Positions 4,848 through 62,527 of a stretch of DNA of 64,000 nt are shown here, one piece after another. Under the pieces are notes generated by a model. That model searched no databases. It saw only the letters and a program-made list of their open reading frames with translations, and was not told where the DNA came from. The DNA comes from Escherichia phage vB_EcoM_Shinka. The stretch lies in the sequence record MZ502379.1; one strand, 5' to 3'. The translations under genes and the position numbers were made by a program. Numbering within the stretch: the first letter of the stretch is position 1; each line of letters opens with the position of its first letter.

Positions 4848-5978
4848 TTATGGATAGGTATAGATGATACCAGTTTCTAAAGCAGTTTTATGAATGATGT
4901 ATCCATTACGCGATTCTTGAACATCAACTTCTGGATAGTCTTTCATCATCTTCTGAAGAGTGTAACGATGTAGGTAATATTTACTATCTGGGTCGTCAGT
5001 TTTCCAATCTTTACCTTCTTCGGTCATTTTTTGGATTTCATCCATAACCCACCAACCGCACCAGATATAAGCTGAAGTACGATGTGGAAGAGGATGAACA
5101 TAAGGTAGTTCACCTTCTGGTTCTGGAGCAACTTTATCAGTTACCTGAACTTGACCTTCTGCTGTAATAGTTTTGCTATCGTAATCAGTTGCAGTAACAG
5201 TTGCAGTAACTTCAATAGTTTGACTTCCAATAGATGAGGTATCAACGGTATATACATTAGTTGACCCTTCTACAGGAGAAGAATCTTTCTTCCACGAGTA
5301 AGTAATTTGTGCTGCGCCAGGTGCGCTAGTAACATTAGCGGTAAATGTAGCCGAAGCATCTTGCTGAACGTTAATAGAAGGAGGAGTCAATGTAACCTGT
5401 GGATTCATTGTCTTCTTATTAACTGTCAATGATACTTCATTCGAAGTAACGCTCAGTGCATCATAATCTTTCGCTGTTACTTGAGCTACACACTTGATTT
5501 TTTTAACTCCACTTGCGGTAGGAGTGTAATTGAATGTAGCAGAAGTTGCTTCGACCACAGGAGAACCGTCAACGTGCCATTGATACGTAGCAGATGCGCC
5601 TGATGGTTGAGAAGCTAAAGCAGCAGTAAATTCAACAGCTGTTCCAATCACTCCAGCCGCAGGACTAGCAGGAGTTACAGCTAAGGTAGTCGTCTGTGTC
5701 TTATTTTGAACTGTGATAGTTGTTGTCGCTTCAGCCGTTTCCGGGCCTCCTTCAGAAAGTGTATTTGTTGCAACAACTTTAATTGTTTTTGTTCCAGCAG
5801 GTCCTTTTAACACATAATCAAAAGTTTCTGCCGATCCTACTTGAGGAGCATCGTCTATACTCCATGCATAGGTAATAGTTCCACCTCCAGTTTCACCACT
5901 GGGTGTAGCAGTAAACTGCTTGGTTTCATCAATAACCCCTGTTGGTGTTTTAGGAGTTATATCAACTGTAAAAGTCAT
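4848..5978 (-). CDS. hoc: highly immunogenic outer capsid protein Hoc
   Basis: 376-aa ORF, Thr/Ser/Val-rich tandem Ig-like segments; T4 Hoc length. Confidence 0.93.
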   Translation of the reverse strand: MTFTVDITPKTPTGVIDETKQFTATPSGETGGGTITYAWSIDDAPQVGSAETFDYVLKGPAGTKTIKVVATNTLSEGGPETAEATTTITVQNKTQTTTLAVTPASPAAGVIGTAVEFTAALASQPSGASATYQWHVDGSPVVEATSATFNYTPTASGVKKIKCVAQVTAKDYDALSVTSNEVSLTVNKKTMNPQVTLTPPSINVQQDASATFTANVTSAPGAAQITYSWKKDSSPVEGSTNVYTVDTSSIGSQTIEVTATVTATDYDSKTITAEGQVQVTDKVAPEPEGELPYVHPLPHRTSAYIWCGWWVMDEIQKMTEEGKDWKTDDPDSKYYLHRYTLQKMMKDYPEVDVQESRNGYIIHKTALETGIIYTYP

Positions 5979-16761: not shown

Positions 16762-16790
16762 GGGGACCGAAAGGTCCCCATATTTTTATT
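16762..16790 (+). terminator. intrinsic terminator after gene 54
   Basis: GGGGACC-GAAA-GGTCCCC hairpin followed by a T-rich tract. Confidence 0.65.
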
Positions 16791-17076
16791 TACGGAATGA
16801 AATAAAAGCAGCAACTGAAGCAACTAAACTGTCTTCAATATAAACTTCAATTTTTACCGGAGCTTCTGACTCAAATTTACCTGTTACTACACCTTGGAAA
16901 ATGCTTTCAGTCTGTTCTGGCTTTGAAAAATTTTCAGAAGGAAAAATTCCGAACTTTTTATCTGTTCCAAAAATTTTGATAAATTCGTCGTAAACCGCTT
17001 CATTAAAAGCGTTATCAGCAGGAATAACGCCTTCAACTACAAGTTCTTGACCTAAAAAGCGTAAAGAAGATTTCAT
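16786..17076 (-). CDS. hypothetical protein (alt.-3 position)
   Basis: 96-aa ORF with its own early-type promoter and Shine-Dalgarno. Confidence 0.7.
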   Translation of the reverse strand: MKSSLRFLGQELVVEGVIPADNAFNEAVYDEFIKIFGTDKKFGIFPSENFSKPEQTESIFQGVVTGKFESEAPVKIEVYIEDSLVASVAAFISFRK

Positions 17077-17083
17077 TTTGTGT

Positions 17084-17137
17084 TCCTCATGTTATGTCAG
17101 TAAGACTACTATAACACAACACGAGGGACTTGTAAAC
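17084..17137. repeat. 54-bp sequence identical to 33023-33076 (early promoter cassette including the Shine-Dalgarno region)
   Basis: Exact 54/54 match read from the sequence. Confidence 0.85.
17108..17137 (-). promoter_or_regulatory. early-type promoter (GTTTAC -35, extended -10 TGTTATAGT)
   Basis: Minus-strand GTTTACAAGTCCCTCGTGTTGTGTTATAGTAG upstream of the alt.-3-position ORF. Confidence 0.55.
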
Positions 17138-19194
17138 TACATTTTGAACTTTTTAGACATTCCGTTGATGTTAACCAAAGAAGCTAAGATTTGAGAAACT
17201 TCATTTTCCTCTTCTTTTGATTCTTCTACAAGGAATTGATTAAATCCAGCCATTGGACGAACTTCACCAGTTTCCATTAGATGGTCTCCATCATATACTG
17301 ATTCTTCTAATTGTTCAGAAGGAGGAACGATTGTACCTTCGATTAGATACTTGTTATAAGCAGTTTCTTTCATAAAGTACGTACTTACTTTATTAATCTT
17401 CAGTAAAATTCCACGCGGTAGAATAACTTCAGCTTCTGATGGAAATCCTGATAAATGACCTGGAACGATAACTTTGATTCGCTCAGCTCCTTTAATTACC
17501 ATACCCACACTAGTTTCAGCATCTTCATTAGCATATGTAGAATGACTACCCATATGCATCAAATCTTCTGCATCAACGGAACCTTCTCCTTCACCAGAAA
17601 ATACTGCTCCGGAATCATCTAGAGCCATATAGTTTTTACCATGCTCACCGAAGATATTTGGTTTAAGCGATGTGGATACGAAGTTCTTGAAATAGAACAT
17701 TTTGTTTTCAATGTTATGACGCAAAGTTTTAAATGTAACTTCTTGTCCACGGTAAAGTGTAGTTCCTGGAGGAAGAACTGAACCTTTAGCGAATGCAGAA
17801 TCCAACGTCTCGATGTGCTTAATAGCTCGTTCCATATATTCTTCACGGGTAGAATCTGGTTTACCCAAAAGGAACGAGTTCATTTCAACATATGAATCTG
17901 CACAATAATCTTCAATTACATCAGATTCAGCCTGAGTCAGTCCTTTTGGAGCTACTTCGGTGCTTGCGTATTCATATGCCTGGGCAGCAGATTCATTAAT
18001 CAATTTATAAATGCCATTCATGACAAATTGAATAATAGCTGTCTTTTCATCTGGTGTGGTTTTAGAACCTTTAACTAAATCATTAATAATTTTCTTAATA
18101 ACATCAAAGCTATTAGAAATATTAATGTCAGCAAGATCGCTTAAAATTTTATCAGTTTTATAATCAAAGAATTCTTTATTCTTTAAATATTCTTGAGAAC
18201 CTTGATATGTTATATCGCTCTGCAACTTGATAGATGGATCACGTAAACGTGCATGGGCCAATGCAATATGATTTCGGAAGCTTTCTAGTTCATAATCGTT
18301 AGATTTAAAACGAGAAGCACTTCTCATACCACCGATAGCTCCTTTGCTGAAGTTTGAACCAATCTGAATAACGCCAGAGTTCATTGGTCCTTCTGCTTTA
18401 TATACCGGAACTTTAGATTCAAACTCTTGATATTTCTTAGCAGCGAAGCTATCACCCTGAAGTGAAGCATCAACAGTAGAATATTGAGCTTGTGCTGCTA
18501 ATCGACGACTAATTTTAGTTTTCTGAATAACAGCTTGGTCCGTGCGCTTATCATTTTCTAAAGCAATAGAAGCAGCAACAGCGACAGCTTTAGGAACAGC
18601 ATTACCTGTTTTAACATCTACATAAACATCACCGACCTTTGATTCAACTTTTGTGAATAACTCAGTTGAAATAGGAGGTACACCTGGAATGTCTTCTAAA
18701 TTGGCATTTTTACGGTAAACCATAATATATGCGTACTTTTTATCATAGTCCCAGATTTCCTTTAAAAGAACATATCGACCTGCTCCTTTAGTACGTACTA
18801 AACGGTCAGCAATAACTTGCATTTGACGAGCTGCGCCATTTGTTTTACTCTTTAGTACGCGGAATAGGCATGCGTCGATTTTATACTGCTTCATTGTTTG
18901 AAGAGCAGTATCAAAAACAGCATTAATGACGCCAATTGGATTTCCACCCAAGTTTCTAAGCTTAACCAGCGATAATTTCTCGTTGACACCTATCATTACG
19001 ATATGCATCATTTTATCGCCTGGCTTAACGTTTTTATTTGTATCACCACCAGAGGTGTATGTACAAAATCTAAATCCAGGAAGCACGCTTTCTTCGCCGG
19101 CTTGGATAGCAAAAATTTGTGGTATTTTATGCTTAGGATTTAAGTTAACAACCGGCGCCGAAGCGCCGTCAAATAATTCTGTAATAAGTTCCAT
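17137..19194 (-). CDS. ADP-ribosyltransferase Alt paralog (second copy)
   Basis: 685-aa ORF; N-terminal ~200 aa similar to Alt (MELITELFD..., CTYTSGGDTN, KMMHIV); motifs YRGQ, FVSTSL, EAEVILPRG. Confidence 0.85.
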   Translation of the reverse strand: MELITELFDGASAPVVNLNPKHKIPQIFAIQAGEESVLPGFRFCTYTSGGDTNKNVKPGDKMMHIVMIGVNEKLSLVKLRNLGGNPIGVINAVFDTALQTMKQYKIDACLFRVLKSKTNGAARQMQVIADRLVRTKGAGRYVLLKEIWDYDKKYAYIMVYRKNANLEDIPGVPPISTELFTKVESKVGDVYVDVKTGNAVPKAVAVAASIALENDKRTDQAVIQKTKISRRLAAQAQYSTVDASLQGDSFAAKKYQEFESKVPVYKAEGPMNSGVIQIGSNFSKGAIGGMRSASRFKSNDYELESFRNHIALAHARLRDPSIKLQSDITYQGSQEYLKNKEFFDYKTDKILSDLADINISNSFDVIKKIINDLVKGSKTTPDEKTAIIQFVMNGIYKLINESAAQAYEYASTEVAPKGLTQAESDVIEDYCADSYVEMNSFLLGKPDSTREEYMERAIKHIETLDSAFAKGSVLPPGTTLYRGQEVTFKTLRHNIENKMFYFKNFVSTSLKPNIFGEHGKNYMALDDSGAVFSGEGEGSVDAEDLMHMGSHSTYANEDAETSVGMVIKGAERIKVIVPGHLSGFPSEAEVILPRGILLKINKVSTYFMKETAYNKYLIEGTIVPPSEQLEESVYDGDHLMETGEVRPMAGFNQFLVEESKEEENEVSQILASLVNINGMSKKFKM

Positions 19195-19197
19195 GAT

Positions 19198-21285
19198 TTA
19201 TCCTTGAACGAACTTGTAAGGCATGTTTGTAATATCTATGCAAGACGCAATAATTCCAAGAGATGATTCTGCTTTCTGTTTAACATTTGATGAAACAAAT
19301 GATGCAAAGTCAACTCTGTCTTCTATTTCACCTGTCATTGCAACTACTTCGCCGGTTTCCATTAAACGGTCACCGTCATAAATTACCGATTCGGTGAGTT
19401 CTTCGGTGGTCATAACTTCAGCTTGAATGAGTTTTGTATTGTTAGATGTTGTTCCGTCATTATTAGAAGCATCAGTTATTTTATTAACTTTGACCATCAA
19501 TCCGCGCGGTAGAATAACTTCAGCTTCTGTTGCTATTCCGAGACTTCCTGGATATACAACATTAACTTTATGTGCGCCGTCAATTGCCCATCCTATTTGA
19601 ACTTTAACGTATTCAGGATTTTCTTTATACGCTCTTATTTCGTTTGGATTAATAGTTATTCCTTCTTCATTTTTATCAACTGTTAATTCATTGCGAGCTT
19701 CTGGTTCTAAAAGACCAATACCAGCATGTGTAATTCCAAAACGTCCAAAAATGATAGGAGTTAAAGAAGTAGATACAAAATTTCTGAAATAGAACACTTT
19801 ATTTTTAACTAGCGCTTCATATATAGGAGCAGTCATACTTTGAGCACGATAAACTGTAATGCCTTCCGGTATACGGTCACCATTTTCAAAAGCTGAATCT
19901 AAATTATTTATAGCAGATTCAATTTCTTTTTCACTCATTGCATCATATCGTTCTGGATTGTAACGACCTAAAAGAAGATTATTAATGTCTGTATATCCTG
20001 AGCCACAATATTCTCTAATGCCGCGCTTTTGTGATGGAGTATATTTAGAACCATCACGGGCAATAGTAATATCAATCATTGGACCAGCACCAATTCCAGA
20101 AAAACTATAAATCATTCGTTTGAGGAATTTAGTTTTTGCTGCATTCCAGGCATTTTTAGTTATTTCTCCCCAGACTTCATCTGGCTGCCCTTTACGAGTT
20201 TTATTATGTTTATCAAGCCAATTATCTTTATATTCTTCAAAGAATTTATTAATAGCTGCTGCGTATTTCTCTAAACATTTTATTGAAGTAGTTGGTTCAT
20301 TTTTTATCGCGTTAAAAATTACATCTTTAATTTTTTCTGAAACTTCATCAACCTCACTTTTTGAAAAGAATTTATAGTCATAGTGAAGTTCATTCGCAGT
20401 TCCTTCGGCAATAATTTTTGCTGCCTTAATTTTAGAAGCTAATGAATTAATTCCAAGCTTCATTTCTTCTGCTTCGGGAATTAAAGGAGCGGTAGCAGGT
20501 TTATTGAAATTAGCTGCGGTAGATTCATACTTATGGAATAATTCACTTTCAAATCTAGAAGATTCTAATGATTGACTTTGTGCAATTGCTCTACGGGAAA
20601 TTTTAACTTTAACGATTACAGCTTGGTCAGAACGTTTATCATTTTCTTGCGCAATAGATGCAGCAATTGCCTCATTTTTAGTTACTTGAGCTCCAGTATC
20701 TTTATTGATATAAACATCACCGACCTTCGATTCAACTTTAGTAAAGAGCTCGGTACTAATTTCCGGAACTCCTGGAATGTCTTCTAGTGATACATTTTTG
20801 CGATGTATAAGAATATATGCATACTTTTTATCGTAATCCCAGAGTTCCTTAAGAAGGACGTATCTGCCACCTGAACGACTACGGATAAGTCTATCAGCAA
20901 TAACTTGAATTTGTCGAGCTTGGCCAGCAGTTTTAGACTTAAGAATACGAAGCATACAAGCATCAATTTTATATTGACGCATAGTTTGCATTGCAACAGT
21001 AAAAACTGAATTGATATAATTAATTGGGCTTGGACCAAGACCTTTTAATTTAGCAATTGAACCTTTAGCAGTTAATGTAAAAGGAACAATATGCATCATT
21101 TTATCGCCCATTTTTAAATCGCGATTAGTATCACCTCCAGATGTATAGGTACATAAACGAAAGCCTGGTTGTTCAATTGCGTCATCAACATGAACTGAAA
21201 AAATTTGTGGTATTTTCTTCTTTGGATTTAAGTTTGTAATCGGAAGAGTAGTATCTTCGTCAAATAATTCTGTAATAAGTTCCAT
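19198..21285 (-). CDS. alt: ADP-ribosyltransferase Alt
   Basis: 695-aa ORF from the second ATG (Shine-Dalgarno GAGAGG spacing); motifs YRAQ, FVSTSL, EAEVILPRG; N-terminus matches T4 Alt from memory. Confidence 0.9.
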   Translation of the reverse strand: MELITELFDEDTTLPITNLNPKKKIPQIFSVHVDDAIEQPGFRLCTYTSGGDTNRDLKMGDKMMHIVPFTLTAKGSIAKLKGLGPSPINYINSVFTVAMQTMRQYKIDACMLRILKSKTAGQARQIQVIADRLIRSRSGGRYVLLKELWDYDKKYAYILIHRKNVSLEDIPGVPEISTELFTKVESKVGDVYINKDTGAQVTKNEAIAASIAQENDKRSDQAVIVKVKISRRAIAQSQSLESSRFESELFHKYESTAANFNKPATAPLIPEAEEMKLGINSLASKIKAAKIIAEGTANELHYDYKFFSKSEVDEVSEKIKDVIFNAIKNEPTTSIKCLEKYAAAINKFFEEYKDNWLDKHNKTRKGQPDEVWGEITKNAWNAAKTKFLKRMIYSFSGIGAGPMIDITIARDGSKYTPSQKRGIREYCGSGYTDINNLLLGRYNPERYDAMSEKEIESAINNLDSAFENGDRIPEGITVYRAQSMTAPIYEALVKNKVFYFRNFVSTSLTPIIFGRFGITHAGIGLLEPEARNELTVDKNEEGITINPNEIRAYKENPEYVKVQIGWAIDGAHKVNVVYPGSLGIATEAEVILPRGLMVKVNKITDASNNDGTTSNNTKLIQAEVMTTEELTESVIYDGDRLMETGEVVAMTGEIEDRVDFASFVSSNVKQKAESSLGIIASCIDITNMPYKFVQG

Positions 21286-21308
21286 CATAGCCTCTCTAGT
21301 GTTTATTC

Positions 21309-26030: not shown

Positions 26031-26057
26031 TTTATTCTCCTTTGTTTGTGTAAGATA

Positions 26058-26087
26058 ATACTATCACAAAGGAACCATACTGTAAAC
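26058..26087 (-). promoter_or_regulatory. early-type promoter
   Basis: Minus-strand GTTTAC, 18 nt, TGATAGTAT upstream of ORF 25698-26030. Confidence 0.5.
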
Positions 26088-26103
26088 AACTTTATGCAAT
26101 CTT

Positions 26104-26135
26104 TGGAAAATAAAAAAGGACTCCCGAAGGAGTCC
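26104..26135 (-). terminator. intrinsic terminator downstream of the 30.9-region ORF
   Basis: GGACTCC-TTCG-GGAGTCC (minus) followed by TTTTTTATTTTCC. Confidence 0.6.
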
Positions 26136-28811: not shown

Positions 28812-29044
28812 AGTACGCCATACACCCTTTGTGCTTCAACTAATCCATCAAAATCCAGTTTAAGATGCGATATTTGATCGCCATCACCTGGATTCACAAT
28901 TACTAATACTGAACGAGGAGTTTCGGTAATAACACGAACCGACGTTTCAGGAAATCGTTCAGAAACCTTATTTACTAATTCCTGTGCAAATAGTTTAACT
29001 TTTTCTTGGAATTCTTTAACAGTAATTGGTTTTTCACTTAGCAT
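28808..29044 (-). CDS. hypothetical protein (cd.x region)
   Basis: 78-aa ORF. Confidence 0.6.
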   Translation of the reverse strand: MLSEKPITVKEFQEKVKLFAQELVNKVSERFPETSVRVITETPRSVLVIVNPGDGDQISHLKLDFDGLVEAQRVYGVL

Positions 29045-29565
29045 GTTGATCCCAGCTCCTTACTTTCAACGTTTTTAACTAATTTGACAGAAACTAATTC
29101 AGCATCTTGAGTAATCATTACCGGACCTTCTTCATACTCTTCAAGATATTCTAGAGCTTTATTTTTAGCTTCTTCCTTCGTATCAGTTTGAGCATAGATA
29201 TAAAACATACAACCAGTAATACCTACTACTTTCCACTTAATTTCTTTATCAGTTTTAATTTCAAATTTACTGGCAGAATCATCTTTTTGAACTTCTTCGA
29301 AAAAAGAATATTCTAACATATAAGCAATTGAAAATAACGGGCTAACTTTATAGGATTCGCCCATTACATCAACAGCTTTATACCAGCAGTCATCAATTTC
29401 GCGTTTAATGCTAATAACATTTTTCGCAGGATCTATTTTTACTTTAAATGAATTTTCCCCAATAAACTGGGCAATTCGTTTATTAGCCCCGCAAGTTTCA
29501 TTAAAAATATCTTTATACCCAGTTTTAAAGCGATAAACCTTATCTTCTTCAAACCATTCGCTCAT
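29038..29565 (-). CDS. hypothetical protein (cd.x region)
   Basis: 175-aa ORF with early-type promoter upstream. Confidence 0.65.
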   Translation of the reverse strand: MSEWFEEDKVYRFKTGYKDIFNETCGANKRIAQFIGENSFKVKIDPAKNVISIKREIDDCWYKAVDVMGESYKVSPLFSIAYMLEYSFFEEVQKDDSASKFEIKTDKEIKWKVVGITGCMFYIYAQTDTKEEAKNKALEYLEEYEEGPVMITQDAELVSVKLVKNVESKELGSTC

Positions 29566-31754: not shown

Positions 31755-32044
31755 TTATCCTCTTTTAACTCTTGACGATAATAACATATCATAGTTTTCT
31801 GATCATGTACATATCGTTTTACATCATTAAGCCAAATGCGAAATTCCTGGGAATCTTCAAATGGCATACCGACCCAAGCTTTACCATCAATAACTTTAAC
31901 TTGCCAAGATAGTTTAGCTTCATCATATGACTTTATTTGTACAGGCCAATTAGGATGAACTGTTTCTTTCTTTACTTCTAGAGGCTTTGTCGAACAACCA
32001 ACTAGAAGACCAATAGATAATATTACTGCTGATAGTTTAATCAT
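31745..32044 (-). CDS. pseT.2: outer-membrane spanin (o-spanin) lipoprotein
   Basis: 99-aa ORF; signal peptide and lipobox LLVGC near the N-terminus; overlaps the upstream i-spanin gene. Confidence 0.8.
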   Translation of the reverse strand: MIKLSAVILSIGLLVGCSTKPLEVKKETVHPNWPVQIKSYDEAKLSWQVKVIDGKAWVGMPFEDSQEFRIWLNDVKRYVHDQKTMICYYRQELKEDKCK

Positions 32045-32394
32045 TTAGAAAGGTCCTGGATGTCTTCTGCGAACTTGTTGAAGGAGTTGTTGATTTGTTT
32101 TTCAACCAATCCTGGCTTATGAGCCACCACATCCGCCTTCTTTGCGTCTTTGCGCAGTTTTTCATTTTCACGCTCAATAGCAGCAATTGCCTCACGATTT
32201 TTATTATTCATCGCATCAATATAATTATACTGAATTCGCAAATTATTTAATGCTAAAGCGTTTTCATTGGCCGTTTTTGTAATTTCTACAACAGACGTTT
32301 CTAATCTTTCAATTTTATTTTTTAAAATTAAAGAAGTTCCGCCCAATGCAATTACAATTAATAGCAAGCCTGCTGTCGTATTACTTAATTGCAT
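32041..32394 (-). CDS. pseT.3: inner-membrane spanin (i-spanin)
   Basis: 117-aa ORF; N-terminal transmembrane helix then a coiled-coil periplasmic domain; adjacent to the o-spanin. Confidence 0.8.
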   Translation of the reverse strand: MQLSNTTAGLLLIVIALGGTSLILKNKIERLETSVVEITKTANENALALNNLRIQYNYIDAMNNKNREAIAAIERENEKLRKDAKKADVVAHKPGLVEKQINNSFNKFAEDIQDLSK

Positions 32395-33018
32395 AAAGTT
32401 TTAATAACCTCTATAATATCGTCTTGAGAAAGACCGTTAATTAAAATATGATGTTCAGCCGGAGATTTAGAAATTTTAAAGCATGCCTCAACATCTTCTG
32501 CCATATCCGATGCGCTACGATTTGGATTACTAATTCCAAGACGATGTTTTCCCGTTAAAGGATTAACGATGATATAGCATTTCAGCCGGAGATTTAGAAA
32601 TTTTAAAGCATGCCTCAACATCTTCTGCCATATCCGATGCGCTACGATTTGGATTACTAATTCCAAGACGATGTTTTCCCGTTAAAGGATTAACGATGAT
32701 ATAGCATTTACAGTTGTTAATATGAACATTAGGTTGAGTCTGATTAATGAACACATCGCAATCATATTTCGCAAGCTGATTTTCTAAAAAGACTTTCATC
32801 TCCTCAACCGCATCAGGAAGCATATCACGGGCTTGCTCAAGACGACGATTTCGATATTCTTTAATGGTCGTTTTCCGCTTGACTTGCTTAGCTAAATCTT
32901 TCTTAAGATCGGTGATATATCCAACTCGACGATTTCCTTTAAATACAGAAATCCCATCTGTAGTATCACCGTATGCTTCAACGACCATTTCAGTAGTAAT
33001 AAGCTGCAAATCCATCAT
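32385..33018 (-). pseudogene. alc: alc (unf) gene disrupted by a 127-bp tandem duplication
   Basis: Two overlapping ORFs (151 aa and 93 aa) share the identical 43-aa segment KCYIIVNPLTGKHRLGISNPNRSASDMAEDVEACFKISKSPAE; removing one repeat copy restores a single ~167-aa ORF. Confidence 0.8.
32455..32708. repeat. perfect tandem duplication, 2 x 127 bp (copy 1 32455-32581, copy 2 32582-32708; boundaries slide by 2-3 nt)
   Basis: Identical 127-nt units read directly from the sequence; length not divisible by 3. Confidence 0.9.
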
Positions 33019-33046
33019 AAAGTCCTCATGTTATGTCAGTAAGACT

Positions 33047-33076
33047 ACTATAACACAACACGAGGGACTTGTAAAC
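33047..33076 (-). promoter_or_regulatory. early-type promoter upstream of alc (54-bp identical copy of the 17.1-kb promoter)
   Basis: Identical to 17084-17137 over 54 bp. Confidence 0.55.
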
Positions 33077-33079
33077 AGC

Positions 33080-34667
<1,588 letters not shown>

Positions 34668-38746: not shown

Positions 38747-39058
38747 TTACACCGCCATTTTTCCTTTCAAGACGCCGTGGGACTGATAATCTTTGAGAAC
38801 GAAATCTTTAGGCCTGAGTTTAAGAATGTATTCCAATTGTTCTTTAGTAGAAAGATAGCGGAATTTATAAGGCAATCCGCCTATTACCAGTTCACAAAGC
38901 TCTTTAGGTTCACGACGCAAAATTTCTTTACATTGTTCTACGTGATTCATATAGATATGAGTATTACCACCGGAAAATATCAAATCTCCCGGAATAAGAT
39001 TACACATCTTAGCTACAATATGAACTAACGTAGCATATGATGCAATATTAAATGGAAG
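38747..39058 (-). CDS. td: thymidylate synthase, exon 2 (103 codons plus stop)
   Basis: Continues exon 1 in frame after the intron: ...DVFLG | LPFNIASYATLVHIVAK...; the track start at 39061 is the intron-terminal AUG. Confidence 0.9.
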   Translation of the reverse strand, partial: LPFNIASYATLVHIVAKMCNLIPGDLIFSGGNTHIYMNHVEQCKEILRREPKELCELVIGGLPYKFRYLSTKEQLEYILKLRPKDFVLKDYQSHGVLKGKMAV

Positions 39059-39378
39059 CATTATGTTCAGATAAGGTCGTTAATCTTACCCCGGAATTAT
39101 ATCCAGCTGCATGTCACCATGCAGATCAGACTATATCTCCAACTTGTTAAAGCAAGTTGTCTATCGTTTCGAGTCACTTGACCCTACTCCCCAAAGGGAT
39201 AGTCGTTAGGCATTTATGTAGAACCAATTCCATTTATCAGATTTTACACGATAAGTAACTAATCCTGATGAAATTATTAAAGGGTAGTCCTACAATTTAG
39301 CACGGGATTGTCTACTAGAGAGGTTCCCCGTTTAGATAGATTACAAGTATAAGTCACCTTATACTCAGGCCTCAATTA
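39059..39378 (-). other. group I self-splicing intron in td, 320 nt, homing endonuclease ORF largely deleted
   Basis: Begins TAATTGAGGCCTGAGTATAAGGTG and ends ...GAACATAATG (td intron ends as recalled); interrupts the TS motif DVFLG/LPFN; encodes only the I-TevI C-terminal remnant SSGLVTYRVKSDKWNWFYINA. Confidence 0.85.
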
Positions 39379-39926
39379 ACCCAAGAAAACATCTACTGAT
39401 CGTTGATACCACTGCAAATCCAAATAGCCATTACGCACATTAAACTGATAGAACATATGACAAGGCGGTAATGCCATCTGCTTGAGTTCAGCTGGATTCC
39501 ATGCTGAAACAATTTGACGCCTATCATTTGGCAATTTTTTAATACGATCAATAACTTCTATAATTTGGTCTACACCGCCAAAATCACGCCACTGTTTTCC
39601 ATAAATTGGACCAAGTTCACCGCTATGGTATCCTAAATCTTTTGCTTGATTTTCGTAATTTTCATCCCAGACTGTTTTGCCTTGAATTAATGAATTATGT
39701 TGAATTAATCGCAAATCATTGACATTTGTGCTTCCCGATAAAAACCAAAGCAGCTCAGCAATGCAAGCTTTCCAGGCGAGCTTCTTAGTTGTTACTGCAG
39801 GAAAACCTTTAGTTAAATCCCAGCGTAATTTAGTACCGAACAAAGCAATTGTTCCTGTGCCTGTTCGGTCATCGGTTTCGTAGCCATTTTCCAGGATATC
39901 TTTAATTAAAAATTGGTATTGTTTCA

Positions 39927-39927
<1 letters not shown>
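39379..39927 (-). CDS. td: thymidylate synthase, exon 1 (183 codons)
   Basis: ATG 39927 (MKQYQFLIKDILENGYETDDRTGTGT...); active-site region ALPPCH present; the track start at 39939 is a TTG. Confidence 0.9.
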
Positions 39928-40956
<1,029 letters not shown>

Positions 40957-41209: not shown

Positions 41210-41234
41210 TTTATTCTCCTTAGTTGATAGGGTA

Positions 41235-41264
41235 ATAGTATCACACTACTACCCTTCTGTAAAC
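41235..41264 (-). promoter_or_regulatory. early-type promoter
   Basis: Minus-strand GTTTACAGAAGGGTAGTAGTGTGATACTAT upstream of ORF 40967-41209. Confidence 0.5.
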
Positions 41265-41572
41265 TACTTTTTGAAAGTTTTTCGCAAAAGTTCAATGATT
41301 TCATCTACATTGTTTTCGTCTACAATGCAGTGAATTTTTGTTACACCAGAAACCAGGTCTTTGACTTCATCTTCTTCAGAAGTCGGTTCTTTATATTCTC
41401 GGAAACAATAAAACTCTTCTTCACTAAGTTCAAAATAATCATCACCCATACCATCATCATTATAGATTTCACCATTAGCACAAATGATTTCGGTTACATA
41501 ATCAAAGCCATCTAAACTTGATATTGATTTAACTTCAAACCAACCACCATTTTCTTGAATGATGCCGACCAT
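41264..41572 (-). CDS. hypothetical protein (frd.x region)
   Basis: 102-aa acidic ORF. Confidence 0.65.
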   Translation of the reverse strand: MVGIIQENGGWFEVKSISSLDGFDYVTEIICANGEIYNDDGMGDDYFELSEEEFYCFREYKEPTSEEDEVKDLVSGVTKIHCIVDENNVDEIIELLRKTFKK

Positions 41573-41922: not shown

Positions 41923-41965
41923 ATTATTTTCCTCTTTAATCATCAGCAGTATTGCCAATAGTTGT

Positions 41966-41995
41966 ATAGTACCATGGAAGAACAGGGATGTAAAC
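41966..41995 (-). promoter_or_regulatory. early-type promoter
   Basis: Minus-strand GTTTAC...GGTACTATACAACTAT upstream of ORF 41695-41922. Confidence 0.5.
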
Positions 41996-42017
41996 AGTTT
42001 TGTGAAAAAATTTTGAA

Positions 42018-51055: not shown

Positions 51056-54004
51056 ATGGCTACTTTAAAACAAATACAATTTAAAAGAAGCAAAACTGCA
51101 GGTCAACGTCCTGCTGCTTCAGTATTAGCCGAAGGTGAATTGGCTATAAACTTAAAAGATAAAACAATTTTCACAAAAGATGACTCAGGTAGTGTTATAG
51201 AATTAGGTTTAAAATATGGAGGAACTATAAATGGGTCTTTAGAGGTTACAGAAAATATAACTGGAACTTTAATTGGAAATTCTAGCACAGCTACTAAATT
51301 GCAAACACCTAGGAAAATTAATGGTATATCTTTTGATGGGTCAAAGGACATTACCTTAACTCCATCTGACATAAATGTCAATAGCACAACATTTATAAAA
51401 AATAATGGCGAATTACCTACTGATGCTAATTTAGATACGTATGGGCCCATTGAAGAATATCTTGGTGTTTGGTCGAAATCTACTTCAACAAATGCGCAAC
51501 CAGCAAATAAATTCCCAGAAGAAAATGCCGTAGGTGTACTAGAAGTATTTGTGGCCGGCCAATTTGCTGGCACTCAGCGTTATACTGTAAGATCTGGTAA
51601 CGTCTATATTCGTTCCTTATCTGCTAAATGGAATGGCGTCGATGGTCCATGGGGTGTGTGGCGTAATGTTCAAGCGTCAACTCGTCCACTTTCACAAACG
51701 ATTGACCTTGATAGCTTGGGAGAATTAGAACATTGTGGCTTATGGAGAAACAGTTCAAGCGCAATCGCATCATTTGATCGCCATTATCCAGAAGAAGGAT
51801 CAGCCGCACAAGGATTTTTAGAAATATTTGAAGGTGGTTTATACACAAGAACGCAGCGTTATACTACCCGCATGGGTATGGTTTATACTCGTTGTCTCGC
51901 TGCTGCATGGGATGCTAGTGCACCTAAGTGGGAGGAATGGAAGCAGGTTGGTCATGGCACACCAGCGACTTTCTATGACGGAGATCTGAATGATTTTAAA
52001 ACTCCTGGATTATATAATATTTTAGGCACTGATGCCGTTATTAACTGTCCTACCGGTGAAGGTTTGCCGACTGTTATTGTTGGTTTGCTGGAAGTTAAAC
52101 AGCGTGCTTCTGGCGGTGCTATTTTCCAAAAATTTACTACTGCCGGAACGGGTGCAACTACTCGCGATCGTATTTTTGAGCGTGCATATACTGGTGGTGT
52201 GTGGGGTGCATGGAACGAAGTATATACATCTTACTCTCTGCCAATTACTTTAGGTATGGGTGGTATTAAAGCTCAATTAGCGGAGTTAGATTGGCAAACA
52301 TTTGATTTTGTTCCTGGTAGTATGTTTAGCGTTCCTTTGAACAAAATAAAGAATATGCCAGCAAATATGGATTGGGGCACGATTGACGGAAACTTGGTTA
52401 TGTTTTCTGTCGGTCCTAGCGAACACACTAGCACAGGGCGTACTGTTCAGGTTTGGCGTGGTACTGTATCCCAGACAAACTATCGTTATTTTGTCGTTCG
52501 TGTGTTCGGTAATTCTGGAAATAGAACTTGCACAGTTCGCCGTGTTGTTCTTGAAGACGGATCACATACTTGGACTGCTCAACAAAACTTTAGGGGATTG
52601 CTGAATATCACTGCTGCTGTTAATCTTGGTGCTAATCAGAAAATTTCACTTGCTCCAGGAGCATATATTCAAGCCCCTGCTAGCGGTTCTGGTTCTAATA
52701 CTTACGCAAATCAGAATATTACCATTGCGCCATTATATCAGGCTATTGACGATTCAAATAAAAGCCAGTTTGCGCCAATTGTTAAACAGAAAAACACTGC
52801 AACAAATATTACTATGGCTTCTGGTATGGATATTGCTAGTTCAGAATATCGTATCGTTGCTCAGGGTGATTTATCCGCTACTGGAACTACAGCCACTGAA
52901 TTAGCTACATGGCGTTTCTTGCCATCGGGCCGATTCATGTCACAAAGTCGAGTTTATGCTGGCGCAGCATTCTTGAACACTGATGGTAACATCAGTGGTT
53001 CAATCTGGAAGAAATATAACAATGCAACCAATTTAGATGCTGCCTTGAATACTCGCCTAGGTAAAGGCGGTGATACGATGACAGGTCGGTTAACAATCAA
53101 TGCACCTAATGATTCTATTGTATTATCAACAACTGCTAGTAATTCTTTGCATATTCGCGGTGACATAGACGGGACTGGTAACTGGTATATTGGCAAGGGT
53201 GGTGCTGATAATTCGCTAGCATTTTATAGCTATGCTTCTCAGGCGGCAGTATATATCACAAACAATGGTGAGATTGCGTTAAACCCGCAAAATACCGCAA
53301 TGGTTAACGTTAACCGTGACCGTGTACACATTAACGGTTCTGGATGGATTGCTAGACAACCGGGTGATTGGGACAACCAATGGCGAGTAGAAGCTCCATT
53401 ATTCGTTGATCATGGTTATGTTGGTCAAGATAGTTATTATCCTATTCTTAAAGCAAGAAGCGTTATAACCAATCAAGGATATAGCACCGCTGTTGACTTT
53501 GGTATGCGTCGTATTCCATCACAGTGGGGGCAAGCAATCATTCGTGTCGGATCCACGGAGGCTTCTCCTGATGCTGGACACCCACAAGCTGTGTTTGAAT
53601 TCCATCATGATGGATTCTTTTATACACCAGGAAATGGTAGCTTTAGCGATGTGTATATTCGTTCCGATGGTCGTCTTAAGATTAATAAAAAAGAGCTAGA
53701 AAACGGAGCACTTGAAAAAGTATGCCGACTGAAAGTTTATACATACGATAAGGTTAAGTCTATTAAAGATCGTAGCGTTATTAAACGTGAAGTTGGTATT
53801 ATTGCTCAGGACCTTGAAAAGGAATTACCGGAAGCTGTGTCTAAAGTTGAAGTTGATGGTTCTGATGTTCTGACAATTTCTAACTCCGCTGTAAATGCTC
53901 TTTTAATTAAGGCTATCCAAGAAATGAGCGAAGAAATTAAAGAATTAAAAACGCCTTTCTTCACTAAAATTGCTCGCAAAATTAGTAATTATTTTAAATT
54001 CTAA
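51056..54004 (+). CDS. 37: long tail fibre distal subunit gp37 with C-terminal intramolecular chaperone (peptidase S74-like) domain
   Basis: 982-aa ORF; conserved gp37 N-terminus; C-terminus [20 protein letters not shown]...GIIAQDLEK resembles an autoproteolytic chaperone domain. Confidence 0.92.
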
Positions 54005-54036
54005 CAACAAGGGGCTTTGCCCCTTTGGAGATAATT

Positions 54037-54819
54037 ATGGCAGTAGTTGGTGTTCCCGGTTGGATTGGAAGTTCATCCGTAAATGAAACGGGTCAGCGCT
54101 GGATGAGTCAAGCGGCTGGTCAATTAAGATTGGGTGTTCCTTGCTGGATGAGTCAATTTGCAGGTCGCTCACGAGAAATAATTCACACGCTTGGAGCAGA
54201 CCATAACTTCAATGGTCAATGGTTCCGAGATAGATGTTTTGAGGCAGGTAGTGCACCTATAGTGTTTAATATCAATGGAGATTTAGTATCATATTCTAAA
54301 GATGTTCCTTTATTCTTCATGTATGGAGATACACCCAATGAATATGTTCAGTTGAATATACACGGCGTAACGATGTATGGTCGTGGCGGTAATGGCGGTA
54401 GCAATAGTCCTGGCTCAGCTGGGGGTCATTGTATTCAAAATGATATTGGTGGGAGACTAAGAATTAATAATGGCGGAGCTATTGCAGGCGGCGGTGGCGG
54501 CGGTGGCGGCGGATATTATTCTCCTTTTTCACAAATGAGATTGACCTTTGGCGGCGGCGGTGGGCGTCCGTTTGGTGCACCTGGCGGATCTATTGATATG
54601 CAATCAGGAGCGACTGGCGGTACTATTTCTGCACCTGGCTCAGGATCCGTGAATGGTATCTATAATGGTGGAAACGGTGGTGAAGTAGGTTCCGCGGGAG
54701 GTAGATGCAATATTCGCGGTCAAGGATCTGAATATAATGGCGGCGATGCTGGTTATGCCGTCATAGGGTCCGCTCCAACGTGGATAAATGTTGGAGCAAT
54801 ATATGGTCCAAGAGTATAA
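54037..54819 (+). CDS. 38: gp38 receptor-binding adhesin (T2-type, glycine-rich motifs)
   Basis: 260-aa ORF from ATG 54037 (GGAG Shine-Dalgarno); several poly-Gly motifs ([25 protein letters not shown]) flanking variable segments. Confidence 0.85.
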
Positions 54820-55791: not shown

Positions 55792-55944
55792 TCAATTAGT
55801 TGACTTTGTTATAATATCATCAGACGCTTGATTTGTAAACTGGTCTGTGTTATTTTCTTCAAAAATTTTTTCTACGAATTCCTTGAACGACTCGCGTTCC
55901 TGAGCTACATTATGCTCGATTACCTTTTCAAGATTATGACTCAT
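55792..55944 (-). CDS. small acidic hypothetical protein
   Basis: 50-aa ORF below the track cutoff (MSHNLEKVIEHNVAQERESF...); ATG overlaps the arn stop (ATGA). Confidence 0.45.
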   Translation of the reverse strand: MSHNLEKVIEHNVAQERESFKEFVEKIFEENNTDQFTNQASDDIITKSTN

Positions 55945-58234: not shown

Positions 58235-58275
58235 TTTCTAATCTCCGTAATTCTGTATCAGTAGTTGATAGTTGT

Positions 58276-58305
58276 ATAGTACCACAGTATGCTTTGGTTG
58301 TAAAC
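58276..58305 (-). promoter_or_regulatory. early-type promoter for motA
   Basis: Minus-strand GTTTACAACCAAAGCATACTGTGGTACTAT upstream of motA. Confidence 0.55.
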
Positions 58306-58324
58306 CGTTTTGTGAAAAAAATTT

Positions 58325-61388: not shown

Positions 61389-61416
61389 TTTCTGTTCCTC
61401 CGTAGTTGATAGGGTA

Positions 61417-61446
61417 ATAGTACCACGGAAGAACAGTCTTGTAAAC
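61417..61446 (-). promoter_or_regulatory. early-type promoter
   Basis: Minus-strand GTTTACAAGACTGTTCTTCCGTGGTACTAT upstream of the 37-aa membrane peptide. Confidence 0.5.
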
Positions 61447-61631
61447 AACTTTTTTAAAAATATTCGTAATAAATGTGAATACCAATCACTACTGCCGAAA
61501 CTTGTGCAACCCACCATGCACACGCAATAAGTACAGAATTCAAAATTTTCATAATAACCTCATCACAAAAGTAAATGTTAAACAAATTACTGGAATACTA
61601 ATTAACCAAACAAAACACCAACATAATGAAC

Positions 61632-61895: not shown

Positions 61896-61922
61896 TTTTA
61901 CTCCTCCGTAGCTGATAGTTGT

Positions 61923-61952
61923 ATAGTACCACTGTCCTTGTGGTATGTAAAC
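61923..61952 (-). promoter_or_regulatory. early-type promoter
   Basis: Minus-strand GTTTACATACCACAAGGACAGTGGTACTAT upstream of ORF 61632-61895. Confidence 0.5.
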
Positions 61953-61969
61953 TGTTTTGTGAAAATTTT

Positions 61970-62527
61970 TTAAATGGAAAGATACCATCCATTGTAGTTG
62001 CTTTTTCTTACAACCTTACGAAGGTCTTCTCTGTCACCGATGAACTTCGGAGTGTACTGGATGACACCTGGATGAATTTCTTTAGTGTTGAATATAATTA
62101 TACAGTCAGCGACTTGATGATTTAGAATGGGCCCTAGATTTATTCCAGAACCGTATGGATACTCTCCGCTGCATCCTGTTGTTACAGAAATCCAACGTGA
62201 GCCAGTTTGATGTGTCTTAACTTCTACACGAAGCCCACAGTATTTTGGATGTGCTAAAACATCCCACGCGTATGTATATGGATCATCGACATCTTCTTGA
62301 CCTTTATTAACATACCCGCTTAGCCAATCTGCTACAAAAAACTCTGCGTATACAGCAATACGACATCTTTCAATAACTTCTGCTTTATCCTGGTTCGGGT
62401 TTTGTTTTAAAGAGTATCTTGCAGTATCAGCAATTTTGACCTTCATTTCACTAGTCAAGTCACTGTTCGATAGGGTAAATGTCGGAATCTGAAATAGTCT
62501 CTGTAAACCCGGATTCGTTTTCTGCAT
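61970..62527 (-). CDS. denB: endonuclease IV (DenB)
   Basis: 185-aa ORF at the T4 denB position and length; assignment from memory. Confidence 0.7.
   Translation of the reverse strand: MQKTNPGLQRLFQIPTFTLSNSDLTSEMKVKIADTARYSLKQNPNQDKAEVIERCRIAVYAEFFVADWLSGYVNKGQEDVDDPYTYAWDVLAHPKYCGLRVEVKTHQTGSRWISVTTGCSGEYPYGSGINLGPILNHQVADCIIIFNTKEIHPGVIQYTPKFIGDREDLRKVVRKSNYNGWYLSI

Follow-up and report, generated by a model that had tools for sequence, protein, structure and literature searches.

A perfect 127-bp tandem repeat inside alc of Escherichia phage vB_EcoM_Shinka is most likely an untrimmed assembly overlap

The stretch of DNA analysed here (hereafter the window) comprises 64,000 nucleotides of sequence record MZ502379.1 from Escherichia phage vB_EcoM_Shinka. 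Based on nucleotide identity and gene order, it is a segment of a Tequatrovirus genome extending from gene 23 to rIIB. Natural isolates provide its best public matches over 25 kb, at ~97%, and the alc locus, once reduced to a single copy of the repeat described below, differs from that of T4 at 39 aligned positions. By these comparisons, the phage is not T4. The alc gene is located on the minus strand between pseT.3 and rnlA, a synteny shared with T4 and SholemSchwarzbard. Its upstream neighbour rnlA (RNA ligase 1; 33080-34204, minus strand) and its downstream neighbour pseT.3 (Rz-like spanin; 32041-32394, minus strand), with a 10-nt overlap between its start and the alc stop, are both intact and align over their full length with their counterparts in a relative, at 99.5% and 99.1% identity, respectively. 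An early-type promoter, a leader and a Shine-Dalgarno sequence, all intact, occupy positions 33023-33076 of the minus strand directly upstream of alc. The promoter scan placed the promoter itself (TTTACA-17-TATAGT with a TG extension) at 33075-33047, and the promoter and leader region is identical in T4 and in T4 GT7.

The segment directly upstream of alc also belongs to a perfect direct repeat of 54 nt, whose two copies, 17084-17137 and 33023-33076, are separated by 16 kb. Both copies contain, on the minus strand, the early-type promoter (TTTACA-17-TATAGT, TG extension), the leader and a GAGGA Shine-Dalgarno sequence. The copy at 33023-33076 drives alc, and the other is located just past the first alt paralogue, before a 96-aa ORF (16789-17076). 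The end of a Logan contig (L025) falls close to this repeat, ~30 nt before the alc start. A distinct family of direct repeats of 60-72 nt, with 61-80% identity between members, is dispersed over the window (26039-26110, 41216-41287, 41948-42008, 55793-55853, 58258-58318, 61398-61469 and 61904-61975). These sequences exhibit GTAAAC...TATAGT-type motifs on the minus strand and are presumably conserved extended T4 early promoters.

The alc gene itself is interrupted by a tandem repeat, whose copies lie at 32455-32581 (copy 1) and 32582-32708 (copy 2). By direct comparison, the copies are 127 nt each and 100% identical, and Tandem Repeats Finder (TRF) returned a period of 127, 2.0 copies, 100% matches and a score of 512. 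The pair of identical 127-bp tandem copies reported at these positions by a first-pass annotation of the window, made from the sequence alone, was thus confirmed. At a TRF score of at least 80, the 64-kb window contains no other tandem repeat, and a perfect tandem repeat of 127 nt cannot have originated by chance in 64 kb of sequence with 36% GC. On the minus strand, copy 2 is read first and is in frame with the N-terminus of Alc; copy 1 is read second and carries the Alc frame on to its natural stop codon.

The period-127 identity spans positions 32454-32709. As this amounts to 256 nt, the junction displays 2 bp of microhomology (TT) and the register of the copies is ambiguous by 2 nt. The novel junction is located between 32581 and 32582, inside alc, with ...GATATAGCATTT on its left and CAGCCGGAGAT... 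on its right; over an alternative span of letters, it reads ...GATGATATAGCATTT-CAGCCGGAGATTTAG.... For arbitrary opening points in the window sequence, junction homology of at least 2 bp occurs with P = 0.17. The microhomology is uninformative, fitting chance (17%) and real T4 recombination (2-10 bp) alike, and we dropped it as a means of discriminating between an artefact and a real event, 2 bp being compatible with both.

Because 127 mod 3 = 1, the alc frame on the minus strand is not maintained across the repeat, and the gene is split into two ORFs, an effect that the first-pass annotation had correctly deduced from the fact that 127 is not a multiple of 3. The N-terminal ORF (32563-33018, minus strand) encodes 151 aa, consisting of Alc residues 1-146 and an out-of-frame tail, MLYHR. 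It terminates as ...KISKSPAE-MLYHR*, that is with five out-of-frame codons followed by a stop, in line with the earlier statement that this ORF ends 5 codons into the second-read copy, and it lacks the conserved C-terminal 22 residues of Alc. The C-terminal ORF (32385-32666, minus strand) would encode 93 aa from a TTG start; its first 28 aa are out-of-frame junk and its residues 29-93 correspond to Alc 104-168. A 43-aa segment, KCYIIV...KSPAE, is indeed common to both ORFs, as previously pointed out, and starts at residue 29 of the 93-aa ORF. Inspection of the sequence revealed no convincing ribosome-binding site or Shine-Dalgarno sequence upstream of the TTG, and no slippery site was seen at the junction. 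The 93-aa ORF is probably not translated. Given its TTG start, the lack of a convincing ribosome-binding site and the 28 out-of-frame residues, complementation in trans appears unlikely.

Removal of one copy restores a single ORF of 168 aa (167 aa from the second methionine, as in T4), close to the ~167 aa anticipated by the first-pass annotation. The collapsed product matches the Pfam family PF17527 (ALC) over positions 1-176 of 177 (E=4.3e-91). In contrast, as encoded in the record, the 151-aa ORF covers positions 1-155 of the 177 and the 93-aa ORF positions 112-176, so that the full-length match in one ORF is obtained from the collapsed sequence only. Together with the position of the gene between pseT.3 and rnlA, downstream of the early promoter, the match of the collapsed ORF to PF17527 confirms the earlier assignment of the gene as alc. 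The collapsed Alc is residue-identical to a common natural allele, present on 285 contigs in its 168-aa form and on 93 in its 167-aa form. To judge from this identity, the duplication sits on an otherwise pristine wild-type alc.

In T4, Alc ends transcription on cytosine-containing DNA via the beta subunit of RNA polymerase (PMC2988021). The alignment of Alc homologues shows that the C-terminal segment HILxNGLSQDDIVEVIxKLC is conserved down to 38% identity, with L150, I159 and C167 nearly invariant. In the core of the protein, no variation is seen at R117, L118 and G119 and hardly any at H116; these four residues are present in both copies of the repeat. If the duplication were real, the 151-aa Alc, deprived of the conserved C-terminal segment, would probably be inactive.

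The first-pass annotation had suggested a comparison with close relatives, which might have revealed a duplication in frame with an intact Alc. Around 500 phage records from Tequatrovirus relatives align over 874 nt of a 1001-nt query, that is 127 nt short, which implies a single alc copy in each of them. A query covering the junction aligns with phage records solely as two separate pieces. Similarly, the 38-nt junction sequence has no exact match in the viral contigs of IMG/VR, the genome contigs of GTDB or the metagenome contigs of JGI; a similarity search with the alc region gave no match in complete E. coli genomes, and neither the 151-aa nor the 93-aa product was retrieved by exact look-up. 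We also gathered 27 further loci that encode exactly the nrdB, the 175-aa ORF (see below) or the rnlA of the window, none of which exceeds ~99% identity to it. Twenty-five of them reach alc, and in all 25 the gene is intact and single-copy, with 167 or 168 aa. The exact rnlA product occurs on 12 contigs; among the seven loci shown for it, six reach alc, each with a single-copy alc of 168 aa. Each of the 19 clusters of Alc homologues is a single ORF, between 153 and 189 aa long except for a fragment of 113 aa. No in-frame duplication was thus seen in any of the ~500 records or the 25 contigs.

Several other features of the window vary among Tequatroviruses. A 282-nt group I intron (39107-39388, minus strand) splits the td gene (exons at ~39376-39939 and 38747-39061). 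It matches the full RF00028 model with 66.9 bits and contains no homing-endonuclease ORF; several relatives have a td intron with I-TevI, or no td intron. Also missing from the window are a 243-aa NUMOD1 ORF, located between nrdA and nrdB in several relatives, and the HNH-containing nrdB intron carried by other relatives. A 175-aa ORF (29038-29565, minus strand) without Pfam match is located between cd.2 and cd.3. Neither T4 nor SholemSchwarzbard has this ORF, which other Tequatroviruses encode in identical form on at least 19 contigs; it has the appearance of a mobile or accessory gene. Two tandem Alt-like RNA polymerase ADP-ribosyltransferase paralogues (17137-19194, 685 aa, and 19198-21288, 696 aa, both on the minus strand) share repeats of ~72-78% identity (families D5 and D6), and the pair is also present in relatives. 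Hoc (4848-5978, minus strand) has 376 aa vs 472 aa in the reference relative, with 75% identity over the shared part, and gp36, gp37 and gp38 (51056-54004 and 54025-54819, plus strand) have strongly diverged from that relative (55-65%). These differences in Hoc and gp36-gp38 are the usual variation of decoration and host-range modules.

The region between 27000 and 40000 is extremely mosaic. When it was compared with ~40 relative loci, only one run of at least 25 consecutive private 21-mers was detected, a 47-nt stretch at 39860-39906, which has a match in one metagenome contig alone, itself 93-95% identical to the window. No relative exceeds ~98-99% identity over 6-13 kb of this region.

The origin of the repeat can be considered in the light of its length. 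SPAdes uses the k-mer series 21,33,55,77,99,127, the top value of which is 127 (PMC9331655), and the length of the alc repeat is exactly this maximum. Overlaps described as '127 bp artefactual' (DTRs) have been documented at the ends of SPAdes contigs, with the recommendation to trim them before a circularly permuted genome is reopened (PMC5923482, PMC9331655, PMC8104045). In short-read assemblies of przondoviruses, internal repeats of ~79 bp were encountered in 7 of 10 phages and were mostly shown by Sanger sequencing to be artefacts; re-orienting of these genomes was also needed (PMC10438801). The first-pass annotation had overlooked that 127 is both the maximum k-mer of SPAdes and the documented length of its artefactual overlaps. 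It offered three explanations without ranking them, namely a recent spontaneous null, a laboratory-selected strain and, in last place, an assembly artefact. In our analysis, the artefact appears the most likely, the real null is retained as a minority reading and the laboratory strain is unsupported.

We thus propose, with a probability of roughly 0.8, that the duplication arose during assembly or curation, as a 127-bp SPAdes overlap that was not trimmed, and is not a feature of the phage DNA. Members of the genus Tequatrovirus package their DNA by a headful mechanism and have circularly permuted genomes. The window belongs to this type of genome by its nucleotide identity and gene order, and short reads from such a genome would assemble as a circle. 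With a largest k-mer of 127, SPAdes would output this circle in linear form, as a contig that ends with the very 127 bases it begins with, just as contigs that are neighbours in the assembly graph would overlap by exactly k. If the contig was then reopened elsewhere, or if two contigs were pasted together, and the overlap was left untrimmed, a perfect internal tandem duplication of 127 bp would be created at an arbitrary position. In the Shinka record, this position would have fallen inside alc, the phage itself having a normal single-copy alc of 168 aa. Both the identity of the assembler and the missing trimming step are our deductions, the assembler being deduced from the number 127 alone.

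Several properties of the repeat agree with this scenario. An artefact of this kind predicts perfect copies and a normal sequence after collapse, and we observed 100% identity and a common natural allele. Since there would be one join per circle, a single tandem repeat and a single frameshifted conserved gene are expected. Indeed, the window contains one tandem repeat, and alc is the sole frameshifted conserved gene among the ~100 of the window that were compared with a collinear relative. The junction homology of 2 bp needs no mechanism, as chance alone would produce at least 2 bp 17% of the time. Above all, the artefact predicts a repeat of exactly 127 bp and a biological mechanism does not. 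By our estimate, the length alone favours the artefact well over tenfold. The resemblance to the SPAdes overlap artefact therefore extends to the length of exactly 127 nt, the identical copies, the single occurrence, the arbitrary position, the circularly permuted type of phage and the wild-type collapsed sequence.

The likeness to published cases is nevertheless incomplete. Published SPAdes overlaps sit at the two ends of a contig, whereas the alc repeat is internal and in tandem, so that an additional step of untrimmed reopening or contig joining is needed, and the internal repeats described in przondoviruses measure ~79 bp, as opposed to 127 bp. Furthermore, we found no untrimmed terminal overlap (0/6) when the first and last 400 nt were compared in six records of the genus Tequatrovirus whose opening point differs from that of T4. 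This suggests that the artefact is not routine and that depositors usually avoid the error, and it slightly lowers our confidence in this explanation. The artefact would also have had to hit a dispensable gene by chance; yet the deposited sequence would show the artefact wherever it had been placed.

The most serious alternative is that a spontaneous tandem duplication recently occurred in the phage stock, by recombination or slippage at the 2-bp TT, and produced a frameshifted, probably inactive Alc. The sequence as given does encode a split alc, and the identical copies on an otherwise wild-type allele would fit a very recent event. An alc null should be viable under laboratory propagation, since transposon profiling classified alc as non-essential in T4, and as being of 'reduced fitness' in Bas37 (bioRxiv 10.1101/2025.11.20.689424), and the conservation of the lost C-terminus across homologues makes a null phenotype plausible. 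T4 is known to recombine at homologies of 2-10 bp, a range that includes TT (PMC9391042), although a 2-bp homology is no better than what chance provides, as calculated above. On the other hand, such a mechanism has no preference for exactly 127 bp, and none of the ~500 relatives or the 25 further contigs has a duplication at alc. Tandem duplications had been presented in the first-pass annotation as typical mutations of T4. This holds insofar as events at homologies of 2-10 bp exist, but those described in PMC9391042 are gene-scale amplifications, selected for dosage, and deletions, not intragenic duplications of 127 bp.

The known short-homology duplications of T4 (rII, Hp17 genes 16-18, dmd-tifA amplification) resemble the alc repeat in their head-to-tail organization, and the 2 bp at the alc junction lie within their documented 2-10 bp, although chance could also account for them. 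Such events in T4 extend over whole genes and up to kilobases, and selection acts on gene dosage. In contrast, the alc repeat measures 127 bp, is intragenic and disruptive, brings no evident selective benefit and has the length of an assembler parameter. Our literature search retrieved essentiality data only and no link between the loss of alc and escape from host defence. Altogether, a genuine recent duplication seems to us unlikely, if still worth considering. Its fuller formulation, in which a natural Tequatrovirus isolate would have acquired a fresh alc null by a 127-bp short-homology duplication and would have kept denB and, presumably, hydroxymethylcytosine DNA, we hold to be slightly more doubtful again.

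The first-pass annotation had also raised the possibility of a laboratory-selected alc-minus strain. Such a strain would be GT7-like, with a genome engineered or selected to contain cytosine. It is established from T4 genetics that the loss of alc function is needed in strains with cytosine-containing DNA, and the alc CDS was left unannotated in the record of T4 GT7 (KJ477686), a strain in which alc occupies the same position as in the Shinka window and is likewise presumed to have lost its function. Such T4 strains also require an inactivated denB (established T4 genetics; see also PMC8056088). However, the search for a companion mutation in denB, as advised by the first-pass annotation, turned up an intact gene. 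The other two genes named in that advice, 42 and 56 (dCTPase), are located beyond the window. The denB ORF (endonuclease IV; 61970-62527, minus strand) encodes 185 aa, is 98.4% identical to that of a natural isolate over its full length and matches phrog_1360 over profile positions 1-188 of 203 (E=3.5e-97). The ndd and rIIB genes are intact as well, and the backbone is not that of T4, as indicated by the differences at the alc locus and by the ~97% match to natural isolates. Finally, GT7 differs from T4 across alc by two substitutions only, without any duplication. One, a G-to-D polymorphism, also occurs in other phages; the other, the true lesion, changes the near-invariant His of the GKHRLG motif to Arg. 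This motif is intact in both copies of the Shinka repeat. Judging from these genes, the idea of a laboratory strain is effectively refuted within the window, and we consider it extremely improbable.

Equally far-fetched is a functional arrangement in which the two ORFs, which jointly cover the whole ALC model with an overlap of 43 aa, would encode a split Alc that reassembles or would be joined by a programmed frameshift at the junction: the downstream ORF has the poor start described above and neither a ribosome-binding site nor a slippery site supports it, the homologues are single ORFs, no second genome with this arrangement was found among phage records or viral, genome and metagenome contigs, and perfectly identical copies show no evolutionary history, so that we have discarded this reading.

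All in all, the coincidence with an assembler parameter, combined with the consistency checks, makes an artefact the most likely explanation for the Shinka repeat, over a biological alc null. If so, the deposited genome contains an untrimmed SPAdes overlap that has created a false pseudogene and added 127 bp to the genome length. A simple screening rule would follow: in circularly permuted phage genomes, perfect tandem repeats whose unit is 55, 77, 99 or 127 bp long are to be regarded as assembly joins until reads contradict this. A real duplication would amount to a modest finding. Shinka would then be a T4-like phage with a natural alc null, in line with the dispensability of alc in transposon data, and would be of some use for probing what Alc contributes outside the laboratory. 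Such a duplication would also mean that the shut-off of host transcription mediated by Alc can be lost in the course of ordinary propagation, or that this function is perhaps selected against on some host.
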